Virus record (IMG/VR): IMGVR_UViG_2690316311_000004 | Coordinates: 1 to 10,226 of that record | Origin: a virus | Taxonomy: Duplodnaviria; Heunggongvirae; Uroviricota; Caudoviricetes | Strand: one strand, 5' to 3' | DNA: 10,226 nt | Shown here: one piece after another, positions 1 to 10,226 of the stretch | How positions within the stretch are numbered: the first letter of the stretch is position 1 | How the letters are laid out: each line of letters opens with the position of its first letter | The notes under the pieces: model-generated | What the model saw: only the letters and a program-made list of their open reading frames with translations | The model's database searches: none | What the model was told of the DNA's origin: nothing | Position numbers and translations under genes: made by a program

Positions 1-541
1 ATACGTCGTGCCCGTCTTCCTGTAACTGGTTCAGCAGATTCATCAGCAGTGAGTTCTCCGTCAGGCCGAGAACACCAGACGGCGAATGAATCAGGCTGCG
101 GTAGCCGGGCTTCAGTGGGGCGCTGTATTCTTTTTTGTCTTCCAGCTTGATCGCCTCCATAATGGCGGGCATGAAGCCTGACAAGACCTTCTCCACTTTT
201 GTTTCTTGTTGTCTTAAACGTTTCTCGCATTCAATGAAGTAGCGTCGTACCTGACGACCTTTTTCGTTACGCTCGACCATTGCTAGTTCTTTGGCTGTAT
301 CGAGGGTGAGGTGGTACTCTTTGCGGTTGTGGCCGCCTCTACCAGATGTTTGCTTTCCCAAATTGGAAAGCAAAATATAGTCTTGATTTTCAATGAATTC
401 GTATTCTGAAATGCGATTTGTAATCCATGCTGCAAACACCTTTTTAACACCTAAAAAAGCGTGCAGATCGCGGGCATTGCAAAGTAGGGCTGTTTCGTTA
501 GATATAGTGCCGTTGAATACGGGGATGAGTTGACTGGTCAT
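1..541 (-). CDS. Phage antirepressor, AntA/KilAC-type (N-terminal ~180 codons; 3' end runs off the window start)
   Basis: Minus-strand ORF with ATG at 541-539 preceded by AAGGAGG (plus 547-553) 5 nt upstream; no stop before position 1. Translation [58 protein letters not shown]...[42 protein letters not shown] fits the AntA-type antirepressor N-terminal domain as I recall it. Not in the ORF track because truncated. Confidence 0.8.
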
Positions 542-570
542 GATGACCTCCTTTGAAGTTTTAGTTAGCA

Positions 571-593
571 ATCACCAGTTAGTAGCTGGTGAT
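571..593. promoter_or_regulatory. Perfect 8-bp inverted repeat ATCACCAG-ttagtag-CTGGTGAT about 30 bp upstream of the antirepressor start
   Basis: Visible; lies in the antirepressor promoter/5' leader region on the minus strand. Binding factor unknown. Confidence 0.35.
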
Positions 594-705
594 CGGGTGT
601 CAACTAGAGCCTTCAAAGACGCTCCGGGCATATTCCCCTTTTGGGTATTGTATTACGCCTCTCCACCCGACCTTTGTACGGATGTGACTATGCCAAATTG
701 CAGGC

Positions 706-735
706 ATAAAAAAGCCGCAAAGCTATCGGGTGCGG
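706..735 (-). terminator. Possible weak terminator ending the leftward operon
   Basis: Minus-strand RNA CCGCA-(11-nt loop)-UGCGG followed by CUUUUUUAUG; short stem and long loop. Confidence 0.3.
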
Positions 736-865
736 GTGACCGCTTTGAAGTTCTAGTGCGGTCAGTATGCGATAGCTCTGGCGGCATTGTCAAATCATGC
801 GCCACTGAGTCCAGCAATCTCTGCAATACCAATAGCGAGATAATCGCGATTCGTCAGGCGTGATT

Positions 866-1114
866 TTATTGCATATGTCTTAGCTCCACTGAAGTTGTGA
901 TTTTATATGGGTTGCCTTTTACCTCAATAACACGATGAGGATCATTTTTTAGCTCTTCCGTAATCTTCCGTAATCTTCTAACAGCTGAACTTCGGTGTTT
1001 ATAACGGTAAGTTACAGTTTCTTTTCTCTGCAATACCTCATCATTGCGGTACTTAGTCAAAACCATGACGACTTCAAACCTGACGCCGTTGTGTGCAACC
1101 ATAATCTGCTTCAT
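866..1114 (-). CDS. Small basic hypothetical protein (82 aa), translationally coupled to the upstream methyltransferase
   Basis: ATG at 1114-1112 overlaps the methyltransferase TGA (ATGA overlap); GGGAG about 9 nt upstream. Product MKQIMVAHNGVRFEVVMVLTKYRNDEVLQRKETVTYRYKHRSSAVRRLRKITEELKNDPHRVIEVKGNPYKITTSVELRHMQ is K/R-rich with no family I recognise. Contains a 10-bp tandem repeat that sets the C-terminal frame. The ORF track extends it to 1234, which I consider unlikely. Confidence 0.45.
   Translation of the reverse strand: MKQIMVAHNGVRFEVVMVLTKYRNDEVLQRKETVTYRYKHRSSAVRRLRKITEELKNDPHRVIEVKGNPYKITTSVELRHMQ
955..978. repeat. Tandem repeat of the 10-mer CTTCCGTAAT (2.4 copies) inside the 866..1114 ORF
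   Basis: Directly visible: cttccgtaat at 955-964 and 965-974, then cttc at 975-978. The period is not a multiple of 3, so copy number determines the reading frame of the last ~30 codons. Confidence 0.9.
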
Positions 1115-1761
1115 GCTGCACGCTCCCGCCCCTGGTTGTCTGTTGGTGACAGCGGAGCATTGCTGAATGCATTTGTTAATCCGCCAATATCCAACGCGTA
1201 TCCAGGGTGTAGTTGCACTGCCGGGTCTTCGCACTGATTACCCCAAACATCGAAACCATGAGACGACTGGCGGGCGAACAGTTCAATGCGAGAAACATCG
1301 CCTAACAATTGCACAAGTTTTTCACGAACGATATCTGGTTTTCTTGAATGCTCAAGCCGCGGTGCGGTAAATGACTGAACGATCCCTGCATTAATGCGCG
1401 TAGGTAGTTTTCCCTTTACCGCAAACAGGCAATCTTCACTATTGGCGCGAGTCATGTGCCCCATACCCATAACCAGTTTATCTGGTTGTCGACTACCACA
1501 TTTTATCCACGTGAAGCCCTTCATGGTCATCAGACGGAATCCCCAGGCTTCAACAACTTTTAGTGCTTCGAGTGGTTGTGTTGGCACCCACCACATGGCC
1601 AACAGACAGTTTTCATCGGCCAAATCCCACACAGGAAGGCGGCAGATATCCAGCACACTCATAACCGGATATTTAAAACCGGCACCGCGATTACCATCTG
1701 CGGCTTTGTCCCGGTATACCCAGGGTGGATCTGCATAGATTAGTGTGTATTTCTTAGTCAT
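1111..1761 (-). CDS. MT-A70-family (beta-class) N6-adenine DNA methyltransferase
   Basis: 216-aa ORF with ATG at 1761-1759. N-terminal LIYADPPWVY (DPPW catalytic motif) and C-terminal RIELFARQSSHGFDVWGNQ are characteristic of the MT-A70 family as recalled. Stop overlaps the start of the downstream small ORF. Confidence 0.85.
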   Translation of the reverse strand: MTKKYTLIYADPPWVYRDKAADGNRGAGFKYPVMSVLDICRLPVWDLADENCLLAMWWVPTQPLEALKVVEAWGFRLMTMKGFTWIKCGSRQPDKLVMGMGHMTRANSEDCLFAVKGKLPTRINAGIVQSFTAPRLEHSRKPDIVREKLVQLLGDVSRIELFARQSSHGFDVWGNQCEDPAVQLHPGYALDIGGLTNAFSNAPLSPTDNQGRERAA

Positions 1762-2053
1762 AAACCACCCCGCAACATCCTATGCCGCTATAGTCGCCAC
1801 GGCGAAGGCCGTTACCTTTTGTGATACATTGGTCCCTGCGAACCGCGATCCTTGCACGCTCAACATCACCAGAAGCAACATCCATACACTGAAGCCAAAG
1901 GTGGGCGGCAATGCGGAACTGCCCTTTTTTCTCTCTTTCAATCGCGCGTTTTTCGATCTCTATCGCCGCAGGAGTAACGGCAACAACCTTTGAAGGGCTG
2001 CGCATTGAAACCTTGTTCATGTGATATTTTTCAAGTCGGCTTAACTTTCTCAC
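1754..2053 (-). CDS. Hypothetical protein; start uncertain (GTG 2053, or ATG at 2020 or 2005)
   Basis: ORF overlaps the methyltransferase start by 8 nt, suggesting co-translation. The GTG at 2053 has no good SD; the ATG at 2005 has AAGG 5 nt upstream. No recognisable domain. Confidence 0.4.
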   Translation of the reverse strand: MRKLSRLEKYHMNKVSMRSPSKVVAVTPAAIEIEKRAIEREKKGQFRIAAHLWLQCMDVASGDVERARIAVRRDQCITKGNGLRRGDYSGIGCCGVVYD

Positions 2054-2162
2054 TTAATCCAACCATCTCTGAAAATTAATGCCAGCAGATAAAGCCATGC
2101 AGAAACAGAGGCCAGGAATAAGTACCATCCTGACCATTTGCTCCAGTGCCTTAGCAGCACAC

Positions 2163-2411
2163 TCATGCCGCGTTGCTCACGGGACGATATACACGTTGCT
2201 GAACAGGAGGTTTTTTACCCTGGAACTCTGCCGGGCTTGCTGCCTGACGTTCATCAAGCCAACGCTCAACTTCATCACGGTTCCATGCGCAGCGTTTATC
2301 GGTGATATACCAGCGTTTAGGAAATTCCCCTGCGCGCTCCATACGGTCGATAGTGCTCCATGACAGTGGCACCACCGCCAGGAGTTCCTTCTTACCTAAT
2401 GCACCTTTCAT
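2163..2411 (-). CDS. AlpA-family phage transcriptional regulator / excisionase-like HTH protein
   Basis: 82-aa ORF with ATG at 2411-2409 and AGAGAGG SD 6 nt upstream. LLAVVPLSWSTIDRMERAGEFPKRWYITDKRCAWNRDEVERWLDERQA matches the AlpA/Xis-type winged-helix pattern (S-STIYR-IK-G-FP-...W...EV-.W) from memory. Confidence 0.75.
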   Translation of the reverse strand: MKGALGKKELLAVVPLSWSTIDRMERAGEFPKRWYITDKRCAWNRDEVERWLDERQAASPAEFQGKKPPVQQRVYRPVSNAA

Positions 2412-2433
2412 AAATACCTCTCTTGGTTGCAGT

Positions 2434-2452
2434 GCGGCGCGCGTGGCGCCGC
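2434..2452. other. Perfect 7-bp GC-only inverted repeat (GCGGCGC-gcgtg-GCGCCGC) between the annealing-protein and AlpA-like genes
   Basis: Visible in the sequence; no T-run follows on either strand, so it is not a canonical intrinsic terminator. Confidence 0.4.
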
Positions 2453-2460
2453 GGTGGTGG

Positions 2461-3342
2461 TTACATAGATGTTTCGTTTAATTCTTCCCGACGAACGCTG
2501 TAAACGTCGGTGGCTTTTGCCAGCAGTTCGTCATCATCTGAAAGTTTTTGTGCAATGTATTTGTAAGCCTTATCCAGTTCGGAGACAGTGCTGTAATTCA
2601 TCGCTGCGCTGGTAAAGGCCATCAGCATTTCTTCTGGATCACGGCTATCCGCTTTACGCGTTTGCTCATCAGGCTTTTTCGCTGGTTTAGCGTTGATCAG
2701 ACTGTTCATTCCCGCAGCAGTGGTCGTTTGCGGAGTAATGTCTCGCTCAACGCGCGGTGCCGTTTCCTGTAATTCGTCAGGGGTGTAAACACCGAGAAGT
2801 ACATCAGGAGCGTGCAGGCGAGCCCATCGTTTCGTGCAAAGATAGGCAAGCTGCTGGCGCGGATCCTGTTCCCACAATGGAGAGTTACGCACTCCGGCTT
2901 GCGCCATACTGATGGTAAGCTCACGGGGTTCTGCTTCTCCTTTAAGAACTGCTGACACAGTTACCGTCAGATTCGGTGATTTATCTGTTTTGCCGTTAAC
3001 ATTCGACCAGTCACCGCTCCAGCGATAATTCAGGCGTGTCGCTAGCAGGCTGGAAGAGGATACGACCGCGTTTACCAACTGTGCTTCGTAGCCTAACGTT
3101 CCGTTTACCACATGCGTTTTCTGCGCCACGGCGAAAGGATTCATTCCCCACTGTGCCGCCTGCATGGTCACCGCCAGACAATCGGCAGGTTTGCCTTCAA
3201 GATGTTTCGGTACAGTCGCTTTGCTTTGTGACATCAACTCCGCGAAACGCACCAGTTGATTCATGCCCTCCGGGCTGAAGATTGCCGCAGCAGTACCTAC
3301 AGTTGCGCCTGGTTGTGATGTGATTGCGATATCATTGCTCAT
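2461..3342 (-). CDS. Single-strand annealing recombinase, Bet (Red-beta)/RecT superfamily
   Basis: 293-aa ORF whose ATG overlaps the exonuclease stop (ATGA). Segments MQAAQWGMNPFAVAQKTHVVNGTLGYEAQL, QQLAYLCTKRWARLHAPDVLLGVY and ERDITP parallel lambda Bet (ANQYGLNPW..., KAMIQCARLAFGFAGIY, ERDITP) as I recall it. Sits directly after an exonuclease gene. Confidence 0.85.
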   Translation of the reverse strand: MSNDIAITSQPGATVGTAAAIFSPEGMNQLVRFAELMSQSKATVPKHLEGKPADCLAVTMQAAQWGMNPFAVAQKTHVVNGTLGYEAQLVNAVVSSSSLLATRLNYRWSGDWSNVNGKTDKSPNLTVTVSAVLKGEAEPRELTISMAQAGVRNSPLWEQDPRQQLAYLCTKRWARLHAPDVLLGVYTPDELQETAPRVERDITPQTTTAAGMNSLINAKPAKKPDEQTRKADSRDPEEMLMAFTSAAMNYSTVSELDKAYKYIAQKLSDDDELLAKATDVYSVRREELNETSM

Positions 3343-4160
3343 ACGTACATATCCTGTTTACGTGCCCAGTCAGGGCGTTTAATAATTTCCACTCCGCCCC
3401 ACTCATCGTTGATGCGGCATTCGTGATAGGTATTCAGATCCCGGCGGAACAGAGCGTGCCCGGCATCGACATCCGGCGCATCCAGCTCGAACACGCGTAC
3501 CGGATACCGACCACAATCAATGCTTTCGCTCACGGCAAGAAAGAAAAAACCATGTGGCTGACCAGTAACCCTCATTGCGCCTTCGCGGTACATTGCGTCC
3601 TGCACGTGGTAGCGGAACTCCTCGATGTGGCGTGCAAAACGGTCCATATCTGCAACCTTTTTCACGTCGACGATCACGTTGTGCTCGTTCAGCCATTTGT
3701 CTGGACGAATTCGGCACAACTCACCCGTATCTTCATCGTTCCAGTACATTGATGCTTCGCAGTAACCATGTGCTTCCAACATCCAGCGTGCCGCCGGGTG
3801 AGCCATTGCGCTATCACGCATCAGCTCCAGTTTTCGCCACTGCTCTGCATCAAGTACCGAAATCCCCATATCCGCTACATCACGAATAAATGCCTCTTCG
3901 TCAGCTTTACCTTGTTTTGTCCGACGATCGAATTTCGGTGAAACGATGAAGCGTTTGTCAAACTCTCCAGGTTCCAGAAGCAGACAGTGCAGAGCAGTAC
4001 CCATGTCCAGTGCAGACTTCTTCTCTTCGTCTTCCGGAGCAGCCTTCACCCATTTCAGAAGGGCAGGGTTCTTAGCCACCATATCTAGCTGCGACTTACT
4101 CACGCCGTCACCGGCGTGGTAGTCCTCGTTGCTGATATCGAAATAAATTCCCGGATTCAT
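3339..4160 (-). CDS. Exonuclease VIII-like (RecE C-terminal type) PD-(D/E)XK nuclease, recombination partner of the annealing protein
   Basis: 273-aa ORF. N-terminal GIYFDISNEDYH, a PDKW...VIVDVKKV (D...D-x-K) block and HVQDAMYREG (Q-x3-Y) fit the PD-(D/E)XK fold of prophage exodeoxyribonuclease VIII-like proteins (recalled). Coupled to ORFs on both sides by ATGA overlaps. Confidence 0.8.
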   Translation of the reverse strand: MNPGIYFDISNEDYHAGDGVSKSQLDMVAKNPALLKWVKAAPEDEEKKSALDMGTALHCLLLEPGEFDKRFIVSPKFDRRTKQGKADEEAFIRDVADMGISVLDAEQWRKLELMRDSAMAHPAARWMLEAHGYCEASMYWNDEDTGELCRIRPDKWLNEHNVIVDVKKVADMDRFARHIEEFRYHVQDAMYREGAMRVTGQPHGFFFLAVSESIDCGRYPVRVFELDAPDVDAGHALFRRDLNTYHECRINDEWGGVEIIKRPDWARKQDMYV

Positions 4161-4456
4161 GCCGCGTCCCTCTGCCCATCAAGCTGATCCGCCAGCTCCC
4201 AGCGGGCGATAATTGCCATTGCCTCTCGCCGATAGGCATCCATCAGTTCTTCGAACTCAGGGCTGTCTTTAGCAGCCTCCAGCACTTCCTGACGAACGCC
4301 TTTGCCTGTTACAACGTCAAAAGTTGAGGCCAGTTGATGAAGCCGGATACTCTCAATCAGTTCGACTTGTCGGTCATATAGCTGTTCTGACAGGCGGTAG
4401 TCCTTGTCGAATGCCAGCATGATTTTTTGAAGATTTTTCTGCTGATTAACGTTCAT
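4157..4456 (-). CDS. Hypothetical protein occupying the gam-like position upstream of the exonuclease
   Basis: ATG at 4456-4454 (MNVNQQKNLQKIM...) with GGGAGGG SD 8 nt upstream. The ORF-track start at 4471 lies inside that SD, so I prefer 4456. No confident family assignment; not obviously lambda Gam. Confidence 0.6.
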   Translation of the reverse strand: MNVNQQKNLQKIMLAFDKDYRLSEQLYDRQVELIESIRLHQLASTFDVVTGKGVRQEVLEAAKDSPEFEELMDAYRREAMAIIARWELADQLDGQRDAA

Positions 4457-4458
4457 TA

Positions 4459-4611
4459 TCAGCCCTCCCATATCTCGTTATCGTTGGCCACATCGCGAGC
4501 TTCTTTGCTGACGAAAGCCCACTTAATACCTTCCTGTAAGGTGCGGAACTTCCAGCTCATGAATCCGCATGCAGTAACGCAGTACCAACCGTTGATGATT
4601 TTCCACTGCAT
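4459..4611 (-). CDS. Small ORF (50 aa) at the kil-like first position of the leftward operon
   Basis: ATG at 4611-4609 with GAGG SD 9 nt upstream. Product MQWKIINGWYCVTACGFMSWKFRTLQEGIKWAFVSKEARDVANDNEIWEG. Its stop lies in the SD of the next gene. Absent from the ORF track, presumably under a length cut-off. Confidence 0.35.
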   Translation of the reverse strand: MQWKIINGWYCVTACGFMSWKFRTLQEGIKWAFVSKEARDVANDNEIWEG

Positions 4612-4667
4612 AACTTGTTACCTCGGCCTGTTATCGTTGAGGTAATAATTATGCGTATCTGGTTTGA

Positions 4668-4673
4668 TGTCAA
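4668..4673 (-). promoter_or_regulatory. Candidate -35 hexamer (TTGACA on the minus strand) of a pL-like leftward early promoter
   Basis: Perfect TTGACA on the minus strand about 55 nt upstream of the 4611 start. The -10 is ambiguous (CATAAT/TAATTA at about 4645-4652). An operator palindrome lies just upstream at 4693-4707. Confidence 0.35.
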
Positions 4674-4692
4674 TAGATATGAGTTAAAAAAA

Positions 4693-4707
4693 TTACCCAT
4701 TAGGTAA
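4693..4707. promoter_or_regulatory. Operator-like palindrome TTACCC-att-AGGTAA (copy 1 of 6)
   Basis: Visible palindrome, extendable to ATTACCCATTAGGTAAT (4692-4708). Sits between the repressor-gene terminator and the leftward promoter. Confidence 0.6.
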
Positions 4708-4717
4708 TCGAATAGGC

Positions 4718-4744
4718 AATAAAAAAGCCGCCTTCTGGCGGCTT
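4718..4744 (-). terminator. Intrinsic terminator of the repressor gene (minus strand)
   Basis: Minus-strand RNA reads AAGCCGCC-AGAA-GGCGGC followed by TTTTTTATT: a 6-7 bp GC stem with 4-nt loop and U-run, 20 nt downstream of the repressor stop. Confidence 0.75.
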
Positions 4745-4764
4745 ACTTACTGAAAAATATGATT

Positions 4765-5349
4765 TTATTGTTTGTTTTTTTCGTTCTGGTTGATGACAAA
4801 TTCAATGTAACTTTCGATCTTTGCTTTCTCGGTTTCGGGTAACAATGCGTAGCGCGAGCGATCATAGTTGATGGTCGCAGGGTCGTGCGGGTGAATCAGT
4901 AATTCATAGCCGTGACGCCCGAATGCGGATGCAACATTCTCCAGGGTGGAAATGGAAACGCTGACCTCATTGTTTAACAGGCGGCTGATTGTCACTTGGG
5001 CGACGCCGGATGCGCGGTGTAGTTTTCCCTGCGTTGAAAGGTCGCGGCTTTCGCTCATCCAGCGTTCCAGGTTGTGAGCCGCCAGCTGACCTATATCGCT
5101 CGGGCCGACAGGCTGAAAACCCTCCTGAGAAAGCGAGCGATCAATATCAAGCCAGTTACGGGGTTTATTGGCGGCAGCTTCAATTTTTCGTGCAACCTGG
5201 TCGCCGATAACCTTCTTGCCAAGAGCCCAGCGGTTTACCAGATTTGCCTGAGTTCCAAGTTTTTCTGCCATCCGCGTCTGAACACCATTGAATTCACGGT
5301 CGATCAAGTCGTTGAGATTTTGCCTGCGGACGTCCTGGATACTTTTCAT
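4765..5349 (-). CDS. Prophage repressor candidate with two tandem HTH (XRE/CI-type) domains and no recognisable S24 peptidase domain
   Basis: 194-aa ORF divergent from the Cro-like gene. First HTH around QTRMAEKLGTQANLVNRWALGKKVIGDQVARKI; second around LHRASGVAQVTISRLLNNEVSVSISTLENVASAFG. No Ala-Gly/Ser-Lys autocleavage module seen. Poor SD, consistent with a near-leaderless maintenance transcript. Confidence 0.8.
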   Translation of the reverse strand: MKSIQDVRRQNLNDLIDREFNGVQTRMAEKLGTQANLVNRWALGKKVIGDQVARKIEAAANKPRNWLDIDRSLSQEGFQPVGPSDIGQLAAHNLERWMSESRDLSTQGKLHRASGVAQVTISRLLNNEVSVSISTLENVASAFGRHGYELLIHPHDPATINYDRSRYALLPETEKAKIESYIEFVINQNEKNKQ

Positions 5350-5372
5350 TTTCTGGAAAATCGCCTCATATA

Positions 5373-5391
5373 TGAATCAGTAGATGATTCA
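5373..5391. promoter_or_regulatory. Unique perfect palindrome TGAATCA-gtaga-TGATTCA about 25 bp upstream of the repressor start
   Basis: 7-bp arms with 5-bp spacer, visible in the sequence. A different motif from the recurrent TTACC/GGTAA palindrome and not repeated elsewhere in the window. Confidence 0.4.
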
Positions 5392-5404
5392 ATTTAAAGC
5401 AATA

Positions 5405-5419
5405 TTACCCAACAGGTAA
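5405..5419. promoter_or_regulatory. Operator-like palindrome TTACCC-aac-AGGTAA (copy 2 of 6), OR-like region
   Basis: Visible palindrome in the divergent repressor/cro intergenic region. Confidence 0.6.
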
Positions 5420-5449
5420 ATGCACCTCATAGGTAACTATCCTTGATTT

Positions 5450-5478
5450 TTGTTACCTTATGGGTGAATATTTATTAT
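5450..5478 (+). promoter_or_regulatory. Candidate pR-like promoter for the Cro-like gene (-35 TTGTTA 5450-5455, 17-bp spacer, -10 TATTAT 5473-5478)
   Basis: Hexamers read by eye; an alternative -35 is TTGATT at 5443-5448. Operator copy 3 lies between -35 and -10. Confidence 0.4.
5453..5467. promoter_or_regulatory. Operator-like palindrome TTACCT-tat-GGGTGA (copy 3 of 6, one mismatch)
   Basis: Visible; overlaps the proposed pR spacer. Confidence 0.5.
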
Positions 5479-5503
5479 CTGAAATAAATATCAGGCAATA
5501 GCT

Positions 5504-5734
5504 ATGAGCGATAACGGACATTTCGATTTCAAAAAGCACTGGCTTGCACTTACTCCGGATGAGCGTGAAGCCTTCGCACAGGAAGCCGGAACAACGAGTC
5601 ACTATATCCAGACTCACTTAACAGGTAAGCGCAAAATGCCAGGTAAGGTATTGATGAATGGGCTTTTTAAAGCCTGTAAAACAAGACAATGGCTGCGCTC
5701 AAAAGCAGAACTGGCATACTTCTTCTACTCATGA
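5504..5734 (+). CDS. Cro-like / YdaS-like small HTH regulator
   Basis: 76-aa ORF divergent from the repressor. HTH-like segment EAFAQEAGTTSHYIQTHLTGKRKMPGKVL. Followed by an intrinsic terminator. Weak SD (AGG 8 nt upstream). Confidence 0.65.
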   Translation: MSDNGHFDFKKHWLALTPDEREAFAQEAGTTSHYIQTHLTGKRKMPGKVLMNGLFKACKTRQWLRSKAELAYFFYS

Positions 5735-5756
5735 TATCCAGCTACAACCCTCTGTA

Positions 5757-5782
5757 GACCGCCACCCGGCGGTCTTTTCATA
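5757..5782 (+). terminator. tR1-like intrinsic terminator after the Cro-like gene
   Basis: GACCGCC-accc-GGCGGTC followed by TTTTCATATCTATT: 7-bp GC-rich stem, 4-nt loop, T-rich tail. Confidence 0.65.
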
Positions 5783-5789
5783 TCTATTC

Positions 5790-5804
5790 GTACCTCAAAG
5801 GTAA
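5790..5804. promoter_or_regulatory. Operator-like palindrome GTACCT-caa-AGGTAA (copy 4 of 6, one mismatch)
   Basis: Visible; immediately downstream of the tR1-like terminator. Confidence 0.45.
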
Positions 5805-5884
5805 TAAAAAACCAAATCTGGTTGATCTTTTTTTTGTGTCAGCACAAAATGACCGTAATCCCAATACTAATAACAGGGCTTACC

Positions 5885-6085
5885 ATGGAAATCATTACAC
5901 GTATTGATGCCGCAAAGCGCGGACTTAAACGCTACTACACCGGAAAACCATGTAAGCATGGACATGACAGTGAACGCTGGGTTTACAACGGACACTGTGT
6001 TGAGTGCACCATGGAATCAAACCGTCGCATCAGGGCAGAGATTAAGCAGATCATGATTAATTCCTCCCCACAACACTCAAGCTGA
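5885..6085 (+). CDS. Small Cys/His-cluster (zinc-ribbon-like) hypothetical protein in the cII-like position
   Basis: Product MEIITRIDAAKRGLKRYYTGKPCKHGHDSERWVYNGHCVECTMESNRRIRAEIKQIMINSSPQHSS has C-x-H-G-H ... H-C-x-E-C spacing suggestive of metal binding. Start ambiguous: ATG 5885 (weak SD), ATG 5849, or the ORF-track TTG at 5822. Confidence 0.5.
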   Translation: MEIITRIDAAKRGLKRYYTGKPCKHGHDSERWVYNGHCVECTMESNRRIRAEIKQIMINSSPQHSS

Positions 6086-6100
6086 TAGCGGAGATTAATC

Positions 6101-6934
6101 ATGAGCAGACATGCAACAGATTGGGCCTGGGAGACAGATCCAGGTAGCTCATCATTAAAGCTCATACTGCTCTCGATGGCTGACAGAGCCGATGAATATA
6201 ACCTCTGCTACCCCAGCATAGAACGCCTCGTTAAAGACACTTGCCTGAATAAAAAAACCGTGCAGGCCGGGCTTATATCGCTCATGAAAATGGGGCTTAT
6301 TTCAGATACCGGAGAGAGAAAGGGAGCGACGAAAAGAGTGCGGGTTTTCTCTCTTAATATAACCAAAAACGGGAACATTAAAGGCAACCGGGAAGGGGGT
6401 AATGAACCCGAAAACGGTAATGTTACCGAAAACGGTAATGTTACCGAAAACGGGAATATACCCAAAAACGGGATGTTGAATGATCCCAAAAACGGGATGT
6501 TGAATGATCCCAAAAACGGGATCCAGAACCAGTCATATAACCAGTCATTTAACCAAGAGAGGGAGAGCAGGACAAAAAGCGGGGATTCTGTGCCTCATGA
6601 CCCCGGCGCAAACAACGCCGTGATGAATAACTTTGTTCCTCCTGGTGGGCCAGGGCAATTAGGCAAATTTGTCATGCATGAACAATGGCAACCATCAGAT
6701 GACTTTCTTCGGAAAAGCTCATTGCAGGGGATCTACCTGGACAGTCTGCCAACGGCACAGGAACTTGCAGAGTTCAGAATTTACTGGATGGCTGAGGGTA
6801 AGGCATACCATCAGGCGCAGTGGGAGCAGAAGCTGGCAAGGCGGCTGCAGATTAGCAGACAGAAGCAATCAACATTACCTGATAACAACGTTCCGCACTG
6901 GAACAGCCCTGAAGCATGGGAGGATTTCTTGTGA
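6101..6934 (+). CDS. Replication initiator (O-like): N-terminal winged-helix replication HTH domain, iteron-encoded linker, C-terminal DnaT-like domain
   Basis: 277-aa ORF with GGAG SD 8 nt upstream. N-terminus WAWETD...SSLKLILLSMADRADEYNLCYPSIERLVKDTCLNKKTVQAGLISLMKMGLIS is replication-initiator HTH-like. C-terminus GKFVMHEQWQPSDDFLRKSSL...ELAEFRIYWMAEGKAYHQAQWEQKLARRLQISR closely parallels E. coli DnaT (GKFAMYPDWQPDADFIRL...[29 protein letters not shown], recalled). Stop overlaps the P start (GTGA). Confidence 0.85.
   Translation: MSRHATDWAWETDPGSSSLKLILLSMADRADEYNLCYPSIERLVKDTCLNKKTVQAGLISLMKMGLISDTGERKGATKRVRVFSLNITKNGNIKGNREGGNEPENGNVTENGNVTENGNIPKNGMLNDPKNGMLNDPKNGIQNQSYNQSFNQERESRTKSGDSVPHDPGANNAVMNNFVPPGGPGQLGKFVMHEQWQPSDDFLRKSSLQGIYLDSLPTAQELAEFRIYWMAEGKAYHQAQWEQKLARRLQISRQKQSTLPDNNVPHWNSPEAWEDFL
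6361..6552. repeat. Origin-like iteron array inside the O-like gene
   Basis: Seven copies of a CC(C/G)AAAACGG(G) core at 6363-6373, 6407-6417, 6426-6435, 6444-6454, 6461-6472, 6485-6496 and 6509-6520, with 18-bp then 24-bp periodicity. Several are palindromic (ATCCCaaaaacGGGAT, GTTACCgaaaacGGTAA), resembling lambda ori iterons (TCCCTCAAAACGAGGGA, recalled). Followed by a tandem 12-mer CCAGTCAT(A/T)TAA x2 at 6529-6552. Confidence 0.7.
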
Positions 6935-7716
6935 ACAACGTTTTTACCGCAATACAAAACCGTGACGGAGAAGCTCTTTCTCGCATGTCAGGTTATGAGC
7001 ATCAGTACGTCAACAATGACAACGTAGTGAACATGTCAGCAGAGAGGCTTGTTGATGCCCTTTTCAAACAGTTGAAACAACTGTTTCCGGCGGCAGTGGT
7101 AACCAACCTGAAGACGCCAGAGCAGGAAGTTGCTGCAAAACAGCAGTGGATTGCTGCGTTTGCCGAAGGGGGGATCCGAACCCGTGAACAGGTTTCTGCT
7201 GGTATGCGCCACGCCCGCGCCAGTGATTCTCCGTTCTGGCCGTCGCCAGGGCAATTCATCAAGTGGTGCAAAGACAGCAAGATGGTTCTTGGCGTCACCA
7301 TTGACGATGTGATGACGGAGTTTCACCGGTACAGCAAGGAAAAAAGTTTATATCCTGGTGGTCCCGAAAGATTCCCGTGGCGGCATCCGGTTATGTACTG
7401 GGTCGTATGTGATACCCGCCGTGCAATGTATCAGCGCCAGCTTAGCGAGATAGAGGTTGAGAAACACGCGCGCAGGCTGCTCGATGATTGGGCGAAAAAG
7501 GTGGCTTCCGGACAGCAGATACCCGATCCGGTGATCAGCATACAGGCAAAGCCAGAACCCATGAGTACGCCTCCGGACACAGGGAGAGACGTTTACCATC
7601 CACCAGGGCGAAGTTTCGGGTGCATGCCTAACGCCGCCACCCTTGGGGGAATAACACCGGCGCAGTGGCTGATGGAGGAATACAGGCGAGGAAAGGCGGA
7701 AGGATTTATCAAGTAA
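6931..7716 (+). CDS. Replication protein P homologue (DnaB helicase loader), lambda P family
   Basis: From GTG 6931 (GGAGGA SD 6 nt upstream) the product VNNVFTAIQNRDGEA... aligns with lambda P MKNIAAQMVNFDREQ...; QQWIAAFAEGGIRTREQVSAGMRHARASDSPFWPSPGQFIKWCKD matches lambda P RQWVLAFRENGITTMEQVNAGMRVARRQNRPFLPSPGQFVAWCRE (recalled). The ORF-track ATG at 6916 is the alternative start. Confidence 0.9.
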   Translation: MNNVFTAIQNRDGEALSRMSGYEHQYVNNDNVVNMSAERLVDALFKQLKQLFPAAVVTNLKTPEQEVAAKQQWIAAFAEGGIRTREQVSAGMRHARASDSPFWPSPGQFIKWCKDSKMVLGVTIDDVMTEFHRYSKEKSLYPGGPERFPWRHPVMYWVVCDTRRAMYQRQLSEIEVEKHARRLLDDWAKKVASGQQIPDPVISIQAKPEPMSTPPDTGRDVYHPPGRSFGCMPNAATLGGITPAQWLMEEYRRGKAEGFIK

Positions 7717-7721
7717 TACCA

Positions 7722-7741
7722 GCGCGATAGCGCATTTTTTT
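7722..7741 (+). terminator. Weak tR2-like terminator after P
   Basis: GCGC-gata-GCGC followed by ATTTTTTT, 6 nt after the P stop. The stem is only 4 bp, so confidence is low. Confidence 0.35.
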
Positions 7742-7753
7742 ACGTTTCGATAA

Positions 7754-7768
7754 TTACCTGTTAGGTAA
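7754..7768. promoter_or_regulatory. Operator-like palindrome TTACCT-gtt-AGGTAA (copy 5 of 6; perfect, extends to ATTACCTGTTAGGTAAT)
   Basis: Visible; upstream of the candidate promoter -35 at 7788. Confidence 0.6.
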
Positions 7769-7787
7769 TAAAATATTCTAAAATCTA

Positions 7788-7816
7788 TTGATTTCGTGTC
7801 TTATGTGGTTTTTAAT
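7788..7816 (+). promoter_or_regulatory. Candidate sigma70 promoter for the DUF1064/Ea22 block (-35 TTGATT 7788-7793, 17-bp spacer, -10 TTTAAT 7811-7816)
   Basis: Hexamers read by eye; flanked by operator copies 5 (upstream) and 6 (overlapping the -10 and start region). Confidence 0.45.
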
Positions 7817-7830
7817 TACCTCAGGGGTAA
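7816..7830. promoter_or_regulatory. Operator-like palindrome TTACCT-cag-GGGTAA (copy 6 of 6)
   Basis: Visible; ends 3 nt before the ATG at 7834 and overlaps the proposed -10. Confidence 0.55.
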
Positions 7831-7833
7831 ATC

Positions 7834-8178
7834 ATGAGAAAACAGATACAGGCTCTTGGTCGACTCAAAACAGGCCAGATGAACAAAACAGAATCTGCGT
7901 ATTGCCAGCACCTTGAGCTGCGTAAACGTGCAGGAGAAATCGTCTGGTATCGATTTGAGGGTATCAAGCTTCGGTTAGCTGACAACACGTTCTATACGCC
8001 CGATTTTGCTGTGATGCTCGCCACCGGCGAGATGGAACTGCACGAAGTGAAAGGTTTCTGGACCGACGACGCCAGGGTGAAAACCAAAGTCGCCGCAGAT
8101 CAGTATCCGTTCCGAATCATCGGGGTAACGGTTAAACCAAAGAAAGCAGGTGGTGGCTGGAATATCGAAGAGTTCTGA
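7834..8178 (+). CDS. DUF1064-like phage protein (putative nuclease-fold protein)
   Basis: 114-aa ORF with AGGGG SD 6 nt upstream. YTPDF...ELHEVKGFWT resembles the D...E-x-K-type core I associate with the phage DUF1064 family; assignment from memory. Confidence 0.65.
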   Translation: MRKQIQALGRLKTGQMNKTESAYCQHLELRKRAGEIVWYRFEGIKLRLADNTFYTPDFAVMLATGEMELHEVKGFWTDDARVKTKVAADQYPFRIIGVTVKPKKAGGGWNIEEF

Positions 8179-8239
8179 ATCGACGATCTTTTTAGTTATC
8201 AATGTAATCAATAAGTTATGTGGATAAGCGAGGGTAAAG

Positions 8240-8872
8240 ATGGAAAGTAATATCAAAGGGTTAGTTGCCGCCGGGCATGAGATGGCTTCGGAACTGAAAG
8301 CAGAATGTGGTGCCGTTGATATGCGCAGTGTGGCAAAGCTGATCAGCGATTTGGCAACGCAACTGGAAGTGCAACTGGTGCGTGCTAATGCGCTGGCCGA
8401 AGACCAGCAGAAAGCGATTGAGTCAATTAAGCAGGCTGATTCGGCTGTTAAGTTGGCACACGAGAAGTTTTCGGCGCTGGCGGCGGAGAATGCGGGGCTG
8501 AAACATGCAATGGCTGTAACTCTTGAGCATGTGTCGGTCACGGATGCAGGTCAGGCCGGAGTTGCTGCAATGATTATCAACGATGCCCTGCACCACAGCG
8601 AAACTCCAGCCACCGATGCTTTTCTGGCTGAAATTCGTGCGGCGGCTCGCAACGAGGGGATTAACTATACCGCAAGCCGTCTTGCTGCTGCTTTCAACCA
8701 CGGATTTATCAATAAGTCTTTACGTGAAGTTTTCGACGTTACGCGCATGATTCTGTCAGCGAAAGAAGAGTTGGCTAATGAACCGCACCCGATTGATGGC
8801 CTGTCCGGTGAATATGCGGAGAAATCCCTTGAAGAATGGGCGGAACAGATTCGCAAAGGAGCTGACAAGTGA
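8240..8872 (+). CDS. Ea22-like (ead/Ea22-like family, tentative) phage protein, paralogue A
   Basis: 210-aa ORF with a coiled-coil-like middle (ALAAENAGLK) and a C-terminal domain (ETPATDAFLAEIRAAARNEGINYTASRLAAAFNHGFI...RMILSAKEE) shared with the ORF at 9288..10073. The family name is a tentative recollection. Confidence 0.6.
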   Translation: MESNIKGLVAAGHEMASELKAECGAVDMRSVAKLISDLATQLEVQLVRANALAEDQQKAIESIKQADSAVKLAHEKFSALAAENAGLKHAMAVTLEHVSVTDAGQAGVAAMIINDALHHSETPATDAFLAEIRAAARNEGINYTASRLAAAFNHGFINKSLREVFDVTRMILSAKEELANEPHPIDGLSGEYAEKSLEEWAEQIRKGADK

Positions 8873-9279
8873 AGAGGATGATTTTTGTGGCGGCATTGCT
8901 GACCATTACCCAACAGGCGCAGGCTTCAGCAGTTATTGTGGCATCTACCGCCGCGACCACGGCTGCTGTAGCTGCTGCGAACTCTGCGAATATCGCAAAC
9001 CAACAGTCACAGCGTGCTGCCAATGCATCAGCCAGTGTTCACCCAATCGCCATTAAGGCCAGCAAGAAAAATATAGGTTTCATAACATGCGGCAAACGTT
9101 CTGACGAGGCTGTAGGTTCACTTGGATGTACGGTATATGGGGATAGTGAGAGTAGAGAAATTCCATGGAAAACGTGGCCCGGATATGTTCTCGGATCGAA
9201 GCTCACTGCCAGCTATGAAGTAAACGCCGTATCGTTTGATCACTATAACGGCGTGGCAACGGTCTATTTTGCATATTGA
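8869..9279 (+). CDS. Small secreted/periplasmic protein with Sec-type signal peptide; function unknown
   Basis: GTG at 8869 overlaps the upstream stop (GTGA), with AAGGAG 7 nt upstream. N-terminus MKRMIFVAALLTITQQAQA has n-region KR, an 11-residue hydrophobic core and an AQA-S cleavage-like site, followed by an Ala/Thr/Ser-rich linker and a ~70-aa C-terminal domain with two Cys. Confidence 0.6.
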   Translation: MKRMIFVAALLTITQQAQASAVIVASTAATTAAVAAANSANIANQQSQRAANASASVHPIAIKASKKNIGFITCGKRSDEAVGSLGCTVYGDSESREIPWKTWPGYVLGSKLTASYEVNAVSFDHYNGVATVYFAY

Positions 9280-9287
9280 GGCTCCGC

Positions 9288-10073
9288 ATGAAATTCTCCA
9301 AATTTTCTGAGTTGGTGAATCGTATTTTGTCCAACAACCACAGCCATCGTCGCGATATGGATGTAACGATCGTTGTTCATTCGCCTGGCAGCATTGGTTC
9401 AACACCCTCAGTTGAGGTTCAGTCAATTCACGCTGGTTTTGATTGGGATTCCGGGAAAGTGCTGATTTTCCCAGCACAGCCACTGACTACGCTAACACCA
9501 GAACAGATTACTGATATTACTGATAGTGTGCGCAAAGGTCAGTCCTGGCACGCATATCAGGAATATAAGAAGCATAAAGAGCAGTTGGAAAAATTATCGA
9601 TTGAACTTGATACCGCAAAACAGCGCATTGCAGAGCTGGAGGGTAATCGCGCGGCGCTGGCTGCGGAGAATGCGAGACTGAAGGCGATATGTGAGGATCG
9701 CCGCACGTTCATTATGAATGGCGTGCAGCTTGGTTTTATCAAAGTGCCAACAGTGGAAATAGATCCAGCTCTTGAAACAATTCGTATCGCCCTATCACCA
9801 CAAAAAACCACTCCTGCGACCGACACTTTCCTGGATGAAGTGAAGACTGAAGCACGCAAGGAGGGCGCTTACTTTGTGGCGAACAGAATGCTGGCTGCTT
9901 GGGAAGCTGGTTTTATTGATGATACTGCGAAGAACGCCGCGGATATTGCCCGGATGATTCTTACCTCTACTGAGTTTATGGCTAATGCGCGGGAAGGCGA
10001 TTTTGACCGCTCATTCTCTGATGGCGTTCTCGAAGATATCGCTGACCAGCTTCGAAAAGGAGGCAAACAGTGA
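9288..10073 (+). CDS. Ea22-like (tentative) phage protein, paralogue B
   Basis: ATG at 9288 with GAGG 6 nt upstream (the ORF track uses TTG at 9276). Coiled-coil IAELEGNRAALAAENARLK and C-terminal TTPATDTFLDEVKTEARKEGAYFVANRMLAAWEAGFI...RMILTSTEF parallel paralogue A. Confidence 0.6.
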   Translation: MKFSKFSELVNRILSNNHSHRRDMDVTIVVHSPGSIGSTPSVEVQSIHAGFDWDSGKVLIFPAQPLTTLTPEQITDITDSVRKGQSWHAYQEYKKHKEQLEKLSIELDTAKQRIAELEGNRAALAAENARLKAICEDRRTFIMNGVQLGFIKVPTVEIDPALETIRIALSPQKTTPATDTFLDEVKTEARKEGAYFVANRMLAAWEAGFIDDTAKNAADIARMILTSTEFMANAREGDFDRSFSDGVLEDIADQLRKGGKQ

Positions 10074-10226
10074 GCAAGATTGACTATCAGGCACTGCGCG
10101 AGGCGGCAGAAGCAATAAAAGTCGTGGCAACGCCGCAAAAATTGCTTGCGTTTCGTATGAAAGTCACACCGCAGGTTGTGCTGGTGCTGCTGGATGAACT
10201 AGAAGCTAAAAACAAACGCATTACAG
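10070..10226 (+). CDS. Partial ORF (5' end only), hypothetical phage protein
   Basis: GTG at 10070 overlaps the upstream stop (GTGA), with AGGAGG 6 nt upstream. Reads MSKIDYQALREAAEAIKVVATPQKLLAFRMKVTPQVVLVLLDELEAKNKRIT... with no stop before the window end. Confidence 0.45.
   Translation, partial: MSKIDYQALREAAEAIKVVATPQKLLAFRMKVTPQVVLVLLDELEAKNKRIT

Follow-up and report, generated by a model that had tools for sequence, protein, structure and literature searches.

The leader of an antirepressor gene, ant, was analyzed in a window of viral DNA of 10,226 nucleotides (IMG/VR record IMGVR_UViG_2690316311_000004, positions 1 to 10,226), and the systems closest to it are RNA-based immunity loci of other phages. 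In P4, Briani et al. reportedly found in 2000 a Rho-independent terminator, t1, between seqA and cI, the efficiency of which is said to depend on the CI RNA and which is said to autoregulate CI. The immI locus of phages P1 and P7 produces the antisense RNA C4, which has two pairs of targets, a1/b1 and a2/b2, and controls icd-ant (Citron and Schuster 1990, as given in the supplement of PMC2864571). Both C4 and the P4 CI RNA are named as RNase P substrates in a passage of PMC5499578. For Gifsy-1, passages of PMC4825925 describe an isrK promoter that gives rise both to the short IsrK RNA, which ends at a terminator, and to a readthrough transcript, from which STnc1160, an RNA of about 80 nucleotides (nt) complementary to IsrK, is processed. 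According to the same passages, short IsrK activates in trans the translation of the orf45-anrP transcript, which encodes an antirepressor. Barquist et al. mention an "IsrK-C4 immunity system" in P4, P1, P7, N15 and some lambdoid prophages (excerpt of PMC3632133), and an excerpted account of N15 anti-immunity has a small processed RNA control the antirepressor antA. The paper on the phi24B antirepressor concerns a different ant gene, near pR', and has no bearing on this locus (PMC3064807).

To judge from sequence and comparative data, it is very likely that positions 793-539 of the minus strand of the window form a self-contained, RNA-only switch that keeps Ant synthesis off in the lysogen. 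The repeats of this region are most likely RNA-RNA pairing sites and not protein operators. The data support membership of a known RNA family, a defined structure, bipartite complementarity, covariation with two sites, a terminator, association with antirepressor genes and a tRNA-like tail; we infer from them the start of transcription, RNA processing, repression of ant and a role for the upstream repeat.

Repeats in the leader of ant

The gene and the two sites on which the analysis centers are the following.

Positions 1-553, minus strand: antirepressor gene, with the Shine-Dalgarno sequence AAGGAGG at 553-547 and the ATG at 541-539; the coding sequence exits the window at its left end.
Positions 551-568, minus strand: putative downstream bipartite target, CUAACU (568-563), AAAA and CUUCAAAG (558-551); counterpart of P1 a2/b2.
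Positions 743-757, minus strand: putative upstream bipartite target, ACUAG (757-753), AA and CUUCAAAG (750-743); repeat copy 2 and counterpart of P1 a1/b1.

The product of ant carries the Pfam domain AntA/AntB (E = 2.7e-26) and is named "phage antirepressor Ant" in RefSeq. An earlier note on this DNA had described a nested repeat structure in the leader, and its observations were reproduced. A 15-mer occurs twice, as CTTTGAAGTTTTAGT at 551-565 and as CTTTGAAGTTCTAGT at 743-757, the copies being identical at 14 of 15 positions. With up to two mismatches allowed, CTTTGAAGTTYTAGT had exactly two matches in the window against 0.04 expected, and two matches were obtained in 0 of 200 shuffles. The core 8-mer is present in inverted orientation at 611-618. 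There is also an 8-bp inverted repeat with arms at 571-581 and 583-593, perfect over ATCACCAG/CTGGTGAT at 571-578/586-593. Copy 1 does lie at the ant Shine-Dalgarno sequence, with which it shares 3 nt.

On the ant strand both direct repeats read ACUA(G/A)AACUUCAAAG. As this sequence is complementary to the loop of a hairpin in the intervening RNA (hairpin 2, below), the repeats are predicted to pair with that loop. The downstream target contains repeat copy 1 and overlaps the Shine-Dalgarno sequence, and in relatives the site invariably abuts GGAG/GAGG on its 5' side or overlaps it, some 15 nt ahead of the start codon. The predicted duplex of the downstream target with loop and junction has an energy of -16.6 kcal/mol, equalled by 15 of 500 shuffled targets. 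The upstream target is complementary to the hairpin-2 loop over 8 nt and to the junction over 5 nt; its predicted duplex is slightly stronger (-19.3 kcal/mol, equalled by 3 of 500 shuffled targets).

A small RNA of the sRNA-Xcc1 family between the two sites

A structured RNA lies between the two targets, on the same strand.

Positions 672-583, minus strand: small structured RNA, Rfam family RF02221 (sRNA-Xcc1), 62.9 bits against a threshold of 53.
Positions 672-664/599-591, minus strand: closing stem of 9 bp, enclosing a three-way junction.
Positions 660-626, minus strand: hairpin 1, conserved, with the near-invariant motif AAUACAAUACCC-AAAA-GGGGAAU.
Positions 625-606, minus strand: hairpin 2, with the 10-nt loop GUCUUUGAAG at 620-611.
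Positions 611-620, minus strand: hairpin-2 loop, which holds the inverted 8-mer (611-618) and is predicted to pair with CUUCAAAG; counterpart of P1 b'.
Positions 607-600, minus strand: junction CUAGUUGA between hairpin 2 and the closing stem, including AGUUGA; counterpart of P1 a'.
Positions 590-587, minus strand: tail ACCA, in the tail segment ACCAGCUA.
Positions 571-593, minus strand: tail hairpin, AUCACCAG (593-586), loop CUACUAA and CUGGUGAU (578-571).

The RF02221 covariance model matched over its whole length (positions 1-87 of 87, E = 9e-10), above the curated gathering score of 53 bits, and relatives in 933W, Stx2 phage 86, 75/02 and POCJ13 scored 53 to 74.5 bits. At relaxed thresholds, matches to mir-542, HCV_J750 and SNORD48 also appeared in searches of the whole window and of 520-880; they were far under threshold and attributed to chance, so that sRNA-Xcc1 was the sole credible match. 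In record LC710660, sRNA-Xcc1 is annotated beside an antirepressor. The small RNA at 583-672 had gone unrecognized in the earlier note, as had the junction as a second pairing region and the terminator that follows the upstream copy.

The structure was examined in 78 distinct sequences. Of the cells of the alignment, 93% pair, against 68.6% in shuffles; cells changed on both sides numbered 395 against 94, and 19 of the 23 base pairs had such changes. These values come from an alignment fitted to the model, which favors structure; slid controls gave 28-52% pairing. The folding check suggested in the earlier note, run on the minus strand, agreed with a structured leader (530-800, -98.6 kcal/mol, z = -5.8 against shuffles).

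About 80% of loci have N-C-C-(A/C) after the closing stem; of 73 loci, 42 have U at -1 and 52 begin the RNA with G. This tRNA-like stem and tail, together with U(-1) and G(+1), resemble those of an RNase P substrate that is cut out of its transcript. The inverted repeat noticed earlier is the tail hairpin, a conserved structure in which the ACCA tail folds back on the sequence immediately past the RNA. Its arms covary, being ACCGCCAG/CUGGCGGU in 933W, CAACCAG/CUGGUUG in 75/02 and GUCACCAU/AUGGUGAC in locus L046. Cognate tail hairpins folded with a median of -6.6 kcal/mol, against -3.7 kcal/mol in chimeras of tails and downstream sequences (p = 2e-10).

Covariation of the loop with both sites

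We collected 80 loci from viral contigs with the conserved hairpin-1 core pattern, a sample biased to members that keep this motif, and a covariance model (R1) built from five phage copies found 90 instances. After removal of duplicate hairpin-2 sequences, 73 unique viral loci and 62 unique loci from bacterial genomes made up the covariation set. Cognate combinations were compared with noncognate ones, i.e., loops and flanks of different loci; these statistics ignore relatedness among loci.

The loop of hairpin 2 is hypervariable; for every variant there is a complement both downstream and upstream. A complement of the loop of at least 7 nt was present at +5 to +60 in 56% of the 73 viral loci (2.2% for noncognate combinations, p = 5e-28) and at -140 to -30 in 68% (3.3%, p = 2e-32). 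The junction behaves as a second pairing region, being complementary to the 5' half of each target (ACUAG, CUAACU): complements of at least 6 nt were found in the upstream flank in 65% of cases, against 8% for noncognate ones (p = 4e-29), and in the downstream flank in 51%, against 6% (p = 1e-22). The repeat is thus 15 nt long rather than 8, because the junction also pairs with the 5' flank of both sites. The bacterial loci, an independent set that spans Desulfovibrionaceae and alpha-, beta- and gammaproteobacteria, reproduced this result, with 79% against 3.8% upstream and 40% against 1.6% downstream.

Individual loci illustrate the pattern, with clean swaps between close relatives. The loop of the window, CUUUGAAG, is matched by CUUCAAAG. 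The 933W loop CUUAUUUG is matched by CAAAUAAG at both positions, that of phage 75/02, CUUGUAAG, by CUUACAAG at both, and that of L046, CUUUUGUG, by CACAAAAG at both; in L087, CACAUUAG is matched by CUAAUGUG. Among Xanthomonadales, the lineage from which sRNA-Xcc1 takes its name (L133, L138, L175 and L201 from Xanthomonas, L140 and L150 from Rhodanobacter, L155 from Dyella and L191 from Luteimonas), the copies are near-identical, and almost all their differences fall in the hairpin-2 loop and in the 8-mer that matches it some 80 nt farther upstream, the variants being CTAGTAGC, GTACATAG, CACAGAGC, CACGTAGC, CTCATAGC, CTAAGAGC, CACACAGC and CTAGCAGC. The hairpin-2 loop is, on this comparative evidence, the putative specificity determinant of the element.

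Those data bear on the two possibilities raised in the earlier note, namely, that the repeats are a multi-site operator for a dedicated regulator of ant or the target of an RNA. The second is sustained by the covariation with the small-RNA loop; the first is not, as the repeats are copies of the RNA target in direct orientation and their changes track the RNA loop. A protein regulator of the Arc/Mnt type binding the repeats as DNA operators would be consistent with two direct 15-mers and an inverted core 8-mer, one repeat being near a promoter-like site (793-764, below). We nevertheless hold it to be very improbable. The repeats change in step with loop and junction in more than 130 unique loci, which a protein operator does not predict, and the downstream copy is on the Shine-Dalgarno sequence and not at the promoter. 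In neither of the flanking open reading frames (ORFs), one on the minus strand (866-1114) and one on the plus strand (540-863), did Pfam return a DNA-binding domain; the minus-strand ORF was considered as a regulator encoded next door and rejected, as it has no Pfam domain. Furthermore, the block 221-799 moves among phages without a regulator gene. Control by LexA, of the Gifsy or Tum type, was likewise rejected: the earlier note had seen no LexA box, and 541-866 contains no CTGT-N8-ACAG with at most one mismatch.

Some phages carry two tandem copies of the RNA, at 1542-1630 and 1004-1091 in L007 and at 1445-1530 and 909-996 in L006; L017, L065, L014 and L130 do so as well. In the Shigella phages 75/02 and POCJ13, each tandem copy precedes an annotated antirepressor gene. 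As the hairpin-2 loops of tandem copies differ, separate specificities within one genome are suggested.

About 50 of 62 downstream genes were of an antirepressor type (AntA 8, KilA-N 12, P22_AR_N 8, Rha 8, Bro-N 8, ORF6N 6). Because these proteins span different families, the RNA module appears to be tied to gene function and not to one protein family. In Vibrio phage VHML the module lies upstream of a Rha-like gene, and in APSE phages, according to a paper on them, an ORF6N gene is preceded by a copy of sRNA-Xcc1.

Promoter-like site and predicted terminator around the upstream copy

The upstream copy is framed by putative transcription signals.

Positions 793-764, minus strand: promoter-like site, -35 TTGACA at 793-788, 18-nt spacer and -10 CATACT at 769-764, with 10 of 12 consensus matches.
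Positions 708-735, minus strand: predicted intrinsic terminator, stem CCGCA (735-731)/UGCGG (719-715), loop CCCGAUAGCUU, then C and U6 (713-708).
Positions 714-785, minus strand: predicted extended hairpin, GCCGCCAGAGCUAUCG/CGAUAGCUUUGCGGC, 15 bp, -33.8 kcal/mol, z = -5.3, followed by U6.

Transcription from this promoter would start near 757. Of 49 diverged loci, 28 have a sigma-70-like promoter in the same position relative to the upstream site, and the reverse complement, used as a control, gave 1 of 49; across loci the -10 box ends 12-13 or 23-28 nt ahead of the upstream site. Among 49 loci with an upstream site of at least 7 nt, 48 have a run of at least 4 T 21-61 nt past that site, preceded in nearly all 48 by a predicted stem. 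The arms of this stem differ among loci and still pair (CCGCA/UGCGG, CCAAC/GUUGG, UCAC/GUGA, CCACG/CGUGG and AUCGCA/UGCGAU). Between the terminator and the RNA, neither the promoter scan nor reading of 707-673 revealed a promoter, a weak negative.

The 5' arm of the extended hairpin overlaps the -10 box, so that transcripts from the module's own promoter should lack this hairpin. With U6, the extended hairpin would be a strong terminator only for transcripts coming from upstream genes, and the module's own transcripts would meet a weak one. In this way transcription of the leftward early operon is probably kept out of the module.

Two short motifs in this region are kept in very distant loci (about 45), the terminator loop motif CCCG(A/U)(C/U)AG (720-730 in the window) and a CGG directly 3' of the upstream target (740-742). 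The terminator loop CACCCGAU, the same 8-mer as 599-592, was considered as a partner of the closing stem; it is probably not a pairing partner, because on inspection of the sequences the loop motif is constant while the closing stem varies.

The earlier note had likened the region to P22, where ant is controlled by Arc/Mnt and by sar RNA. This analogy fails as to strand, as sar is made from the opposite strand and here regulator and targets lie on the ant strand. An opposite-strand RNA of the sar type was rejected for the window because all complementary elements are on the ant strand and because our scan of the plus strand of 541-866 returned no promoter-like or terminator-like site.

Proposed mechanism

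In the mechanism we propose, a constitutive promoter would start a leader near 757; its first nucleotides, ACUAG-AA-CUUCAAAG, would duplicate the ribosome-binding region of ant, and the intrinsic terminator would come next. Readthrough transcripts would carry the 90-nt three-way-junction RNA of the sRNA-Xcc1 family, with its tRNA-like closing stem and ACCA tail. This RNA is probably excised, with RNase P making its 5' end, as in P1 C4 and P4 CI. Its loop CUUUGAAG and junction CUAGUUGA would then pair with 568-551 over the ant Shine-Dalgarno sequence and block translation. The processed RNA would do so in trans, and pairing inside the leader before processing would probably have the same effect in cis. 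The upstream copy would compete for the same loop, and two roles may be envisaged for it. As an attenuator, its pairing would favor termination and so autoregulate the RNA, like P4 seqA with t1. As a decoy, a leader RNA of about 50 nt would be released and would activate ant by titrating the repressor RNA, on the pattern of IsrK in Gifsy-1. Phages would differ in specificity, each according to its variable loop and junction and the sites matched to them.

A purely cis-acting leader would produce a related outcome. In such a leader the segment of hairpin 2 and junction would hide the Shine-Dalgarno sequence, no RNA acting in trans would be released, and the short upstream leader RNA, the only trans factor, would open the fold. 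The minimum-energy fold of 530-800 does pair CUUUGAAGG...UAGUUG with CUAACU...CUUCAAAGGAGG in cis, that is, the segment of hairpin-2 loop and junction with the Shine-Dalgarno region, and the same pairing is visible in the spurious mir-542 alignment. There is also a precedent in IsrK, as the long transcript is described as translationally inactive and activated in trans by short IsrK (passage of PMC4825925). We consider this model unlikely on its own. The conserved closing stem, the NCC(A/C) tail and U(-1)/G(+1) resemble an excised RNase P substrate; the Gifsy-1 analogue, STnc1160, exists as a stable processed RNA of about 80 nt, and P1 C4 and P4 CI are processed; and in Xanthomonadales the RNA is kept though a cis Shine-Dalgarno site is lacking. 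In addition, an RNA named sRNA-Xcc1 is listed among abundant noncoding RNAs of strain EDL933, with reads of the same order as those of CsrB and RNase P RNA and a low ribosome coverage value of 0.02 (part of PMC5331693). The cis and trans modes are, moreover, compatible with each other.

Several observations weigh against the proposed RNA switch or restrict its reach. The EDL933 reads were counted over Rfam coordinates and are no proof of a discrete processed RNA. In the predicted tail hairpin the ACCA is engaged in base pairs, a poor fit to an RNase P that recognizes a free RCCA end, and the core pairing spans no more than 8 nt plus 5-6 nt. Depending on the cutoff, about 25-45% of loci have no downstream site of at least 6-7 nt in the searched window. 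In the Xanthomonadales loci no complement was found at the ribosome-binding site of the next gene, and the upstream partner alone coevolves. Occlusion of the Shine-Dalgarno sequence is therefore not family-wide. Lastly, the Rfam models of C4 (RF01695, clan CL00128), c4-a1b1 (RF03163) and isrK (RF01394) had no match on 520-880 at E values up to 10. In the known loci the C4 model scored 68.8 bits on P1 and 78.8 on N15, with 51 bits for c4-a1b1 and 35 for isrK on P1 and 62 for isrK on N15. Conversely, model R1 of the window RNA had no match in the P1 or N15 loci at E values up to 1. As no model matched in either direction, homology to C4 is not established, and what is shared is topology and logic.

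Prophage context

The window is identical to a lambdoid prophage adjoining guaA in Escherichia coli strain 2015C-4944, where the order is guaA, int on the plus strand and then minus-strand genes starting with ant.

From beyond the left end (<1) to 541, minus strand: ant, followed by a gap of 325 nt without annotation.
From 866 onward, past the gap, minus strand: hypothetical gene (866-1114), then genes for an MT-A70 methyltransferase, a PerC-like protein and an AlpA-like protein, and recT/exo-type genes.

RefSeq has no annotation in 542-865. A 107-amino-acid (aa) ORF occupies 540-863 on the plus strand, and a longer counterpart is annotated as "orf43" in Stx2 phage 86 (AB255436). That the region encodes this protein, the repeats being incidental, is extremely improbable in our view. 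The plus-strand region of 933W is split into ORFs of 51, 44 and 47 aa, the ORF of the window has no Pfam match and no RefSeq call, and conservation follows RNA pairing and not codons. The possibility of a short-protein gene, which the earlier note had named as an outcome that would undo its proposal, thus found no support.

The only part of the window common to many Shiga-toxin (Stx) phages is 221-799, comprising the 5' part of ant and the leader up to the promoter-like site; this shared block stops at 799, just upstream of the -35 box. The leader (541-800) is 87-97% identical in 933W, VT2-Sakai, Stx2 phage 86, P13374, phiON-2011 and others. Because 221-799 alone is shared and the leader is so similar, the leader and the start of ant appear to form a mobile module.

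Further upstream, a homologue of PerC-family activators (1754-2053) and an AlpA-like regulator (2163-2411), both on the minus strand, are unlinked to the ant module. Within the hypothetical ORF 866-1114 (minus strand), the 10-nt sequence cttccgtaat is duplicated in tandem (about 2.3 copies, 955-978).

Possible meaning of sRNA-Xcc1

The sRNA-Xcc1 of Xanthomonas campestris has been presented as an integron-borne, trans-acting RNA under HrpG/HrpX control and possibly related to virulence (Chen et al. 2011, as cited in passages of later work). Excerpts of papers from 2025 still discuss it as a possible virulence or trans-kingdom small RNA. In these passages of the sRNA-Xcc1 literature there is no link to antirepressor control, to C4 or to covarying sites.

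We put forward, tentatively and as a possibility that may well prove wrong, that sRNA-Xcc1 is not a virulence small RNA but lies at the heart of another widespread class of programmable RNA immunity modules, the second beside its sister C4/CI. In each mobile element a hypervariable loop and junction and two matched sites would make up a private lock and key, and the terminated upstream leader would be a diffusible anti-antisense key. If so, a co-resident or incoming phage with the same key could switch on the antirepressor of another prophage, Shiga-toxin prophages included, which would be a route of induction without the SOS response. The Xanthomonadales members with an upstream partner only would then be an attenuator-only form.

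Apart from that proposal, the module would explain how ant can be silent in the lysogen despite a constitutive-looking promoter of its own and no LexA box. In Stx phages that share the 260-bp leader, expression of the antirepressor bears on prophage induction and hence on toxin release. Orthogonal pairs may help to explain separate switches among the prophages of multi-prophage strains. The loop/site pairs and the tandem modules would also represent natural orthogonal triplets of RNA repressor, target and decoy, usable for synthetic regulation.

Comparison with known RNA systems

By function, the locus resembles C4/immI as that system is defined: loop and junction are complementary to a pair at the ribosome-binding site and to an upstream pair, all on one strand, and the gene predicted to be controlled encodes an antirepressor. 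It also resembles isrK and seqA in that a promoter-proximal copy of the target, followed by a putative intrinsic terminator, lies upstream of the predicted antisense RNA.

The order of elements in P1 (NC_005856) is like that of the window, with the P1c4 promoter, a1 b1, a hairpin and U run, C4, a2 b2, icd and ant. The P1 hairpin between b1 and c4, CCGCA...UGCGG followed by UAUUUUU, is like the terminator of the window. In both loci regulator and targets are on the same strand, and the bipartite pairing has the same 5'-3' order. The topology of C4, with a closing stem, a tetraloop hairpin, a variable-loop hairpin (b'), a single-stranded junction (a') and an (A)CC tail (CCACC in C4), also matches that of the window RNA. 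The two differ in other respects. Hairpin 1 of the window group has the near-invariant AAUACAAYACCC-N4-GGGGAAU, a motif absent from the C4 consensus, and the closing stem is 9 bp long, whereas that of C4 has about 17. Unlike in P1, the target in the window is directly on the ant Shine-Dalgarno sequence, without an icd-like ORF between, and the host is a lambdoid prophage in which the module lies beside int, at the end of the leftward genes.

In P1 (L128, 631-712) the isrK model gave a sub-threshold match between b1 and c4 (35 bits against 50), across a1/b1 and the hairpin with its U run. This match suggests an IsrK-like terminated leader upstream of C4 in P1. In N15 an RNA of the isrK family lies directly upstream of one of the C4 family, the order seen in the window. 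Of the experimental precedents for a possible decoy role of the upstream copy, short IsrK is the best. In the window group, transcription predicted to start near 757, inside the hairpin that encloses the site, would put the a1-like site at the 5' end of the transcript, unlike in isrK; distant sRNA-Xcc1-type loci have an a-type site in the loop of a 5' hairpin, as isrK does.

P4 offers a further parallel. Its RNase P-processed CI RNA pairs with seqA upstream and seqC downstream in the same transcript, as is predicted for the window RNA, and the reported position of t1 is that of the window terminator (735-708). CI acts mainly by terminating transcription of the replication genes, whereas in the window the ribosome-binding site of the antirepressor would be covered. 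With P22 sar, the window RNA would share the role of limiting antirepressor translation in a temperate phage. In P22, sar is encoded on the opposite strand across the start of ant and acts beside two repressor proteins, Arc and Mnt; in the window everything is on the ant strand and there is no adjacent repressor gene.

The terminator loop motif CCCG(A/U)(C/U)AG and the sRNA-Xcc1 core RNA set the window element apart from IsrK-C4. By its predicted pairing, it is an element that works like the C4, IsrK and CI systems yet stands outside the C4, c4-a1b1 and isrK families, with sRNA-Xcc1 as its core RNA.

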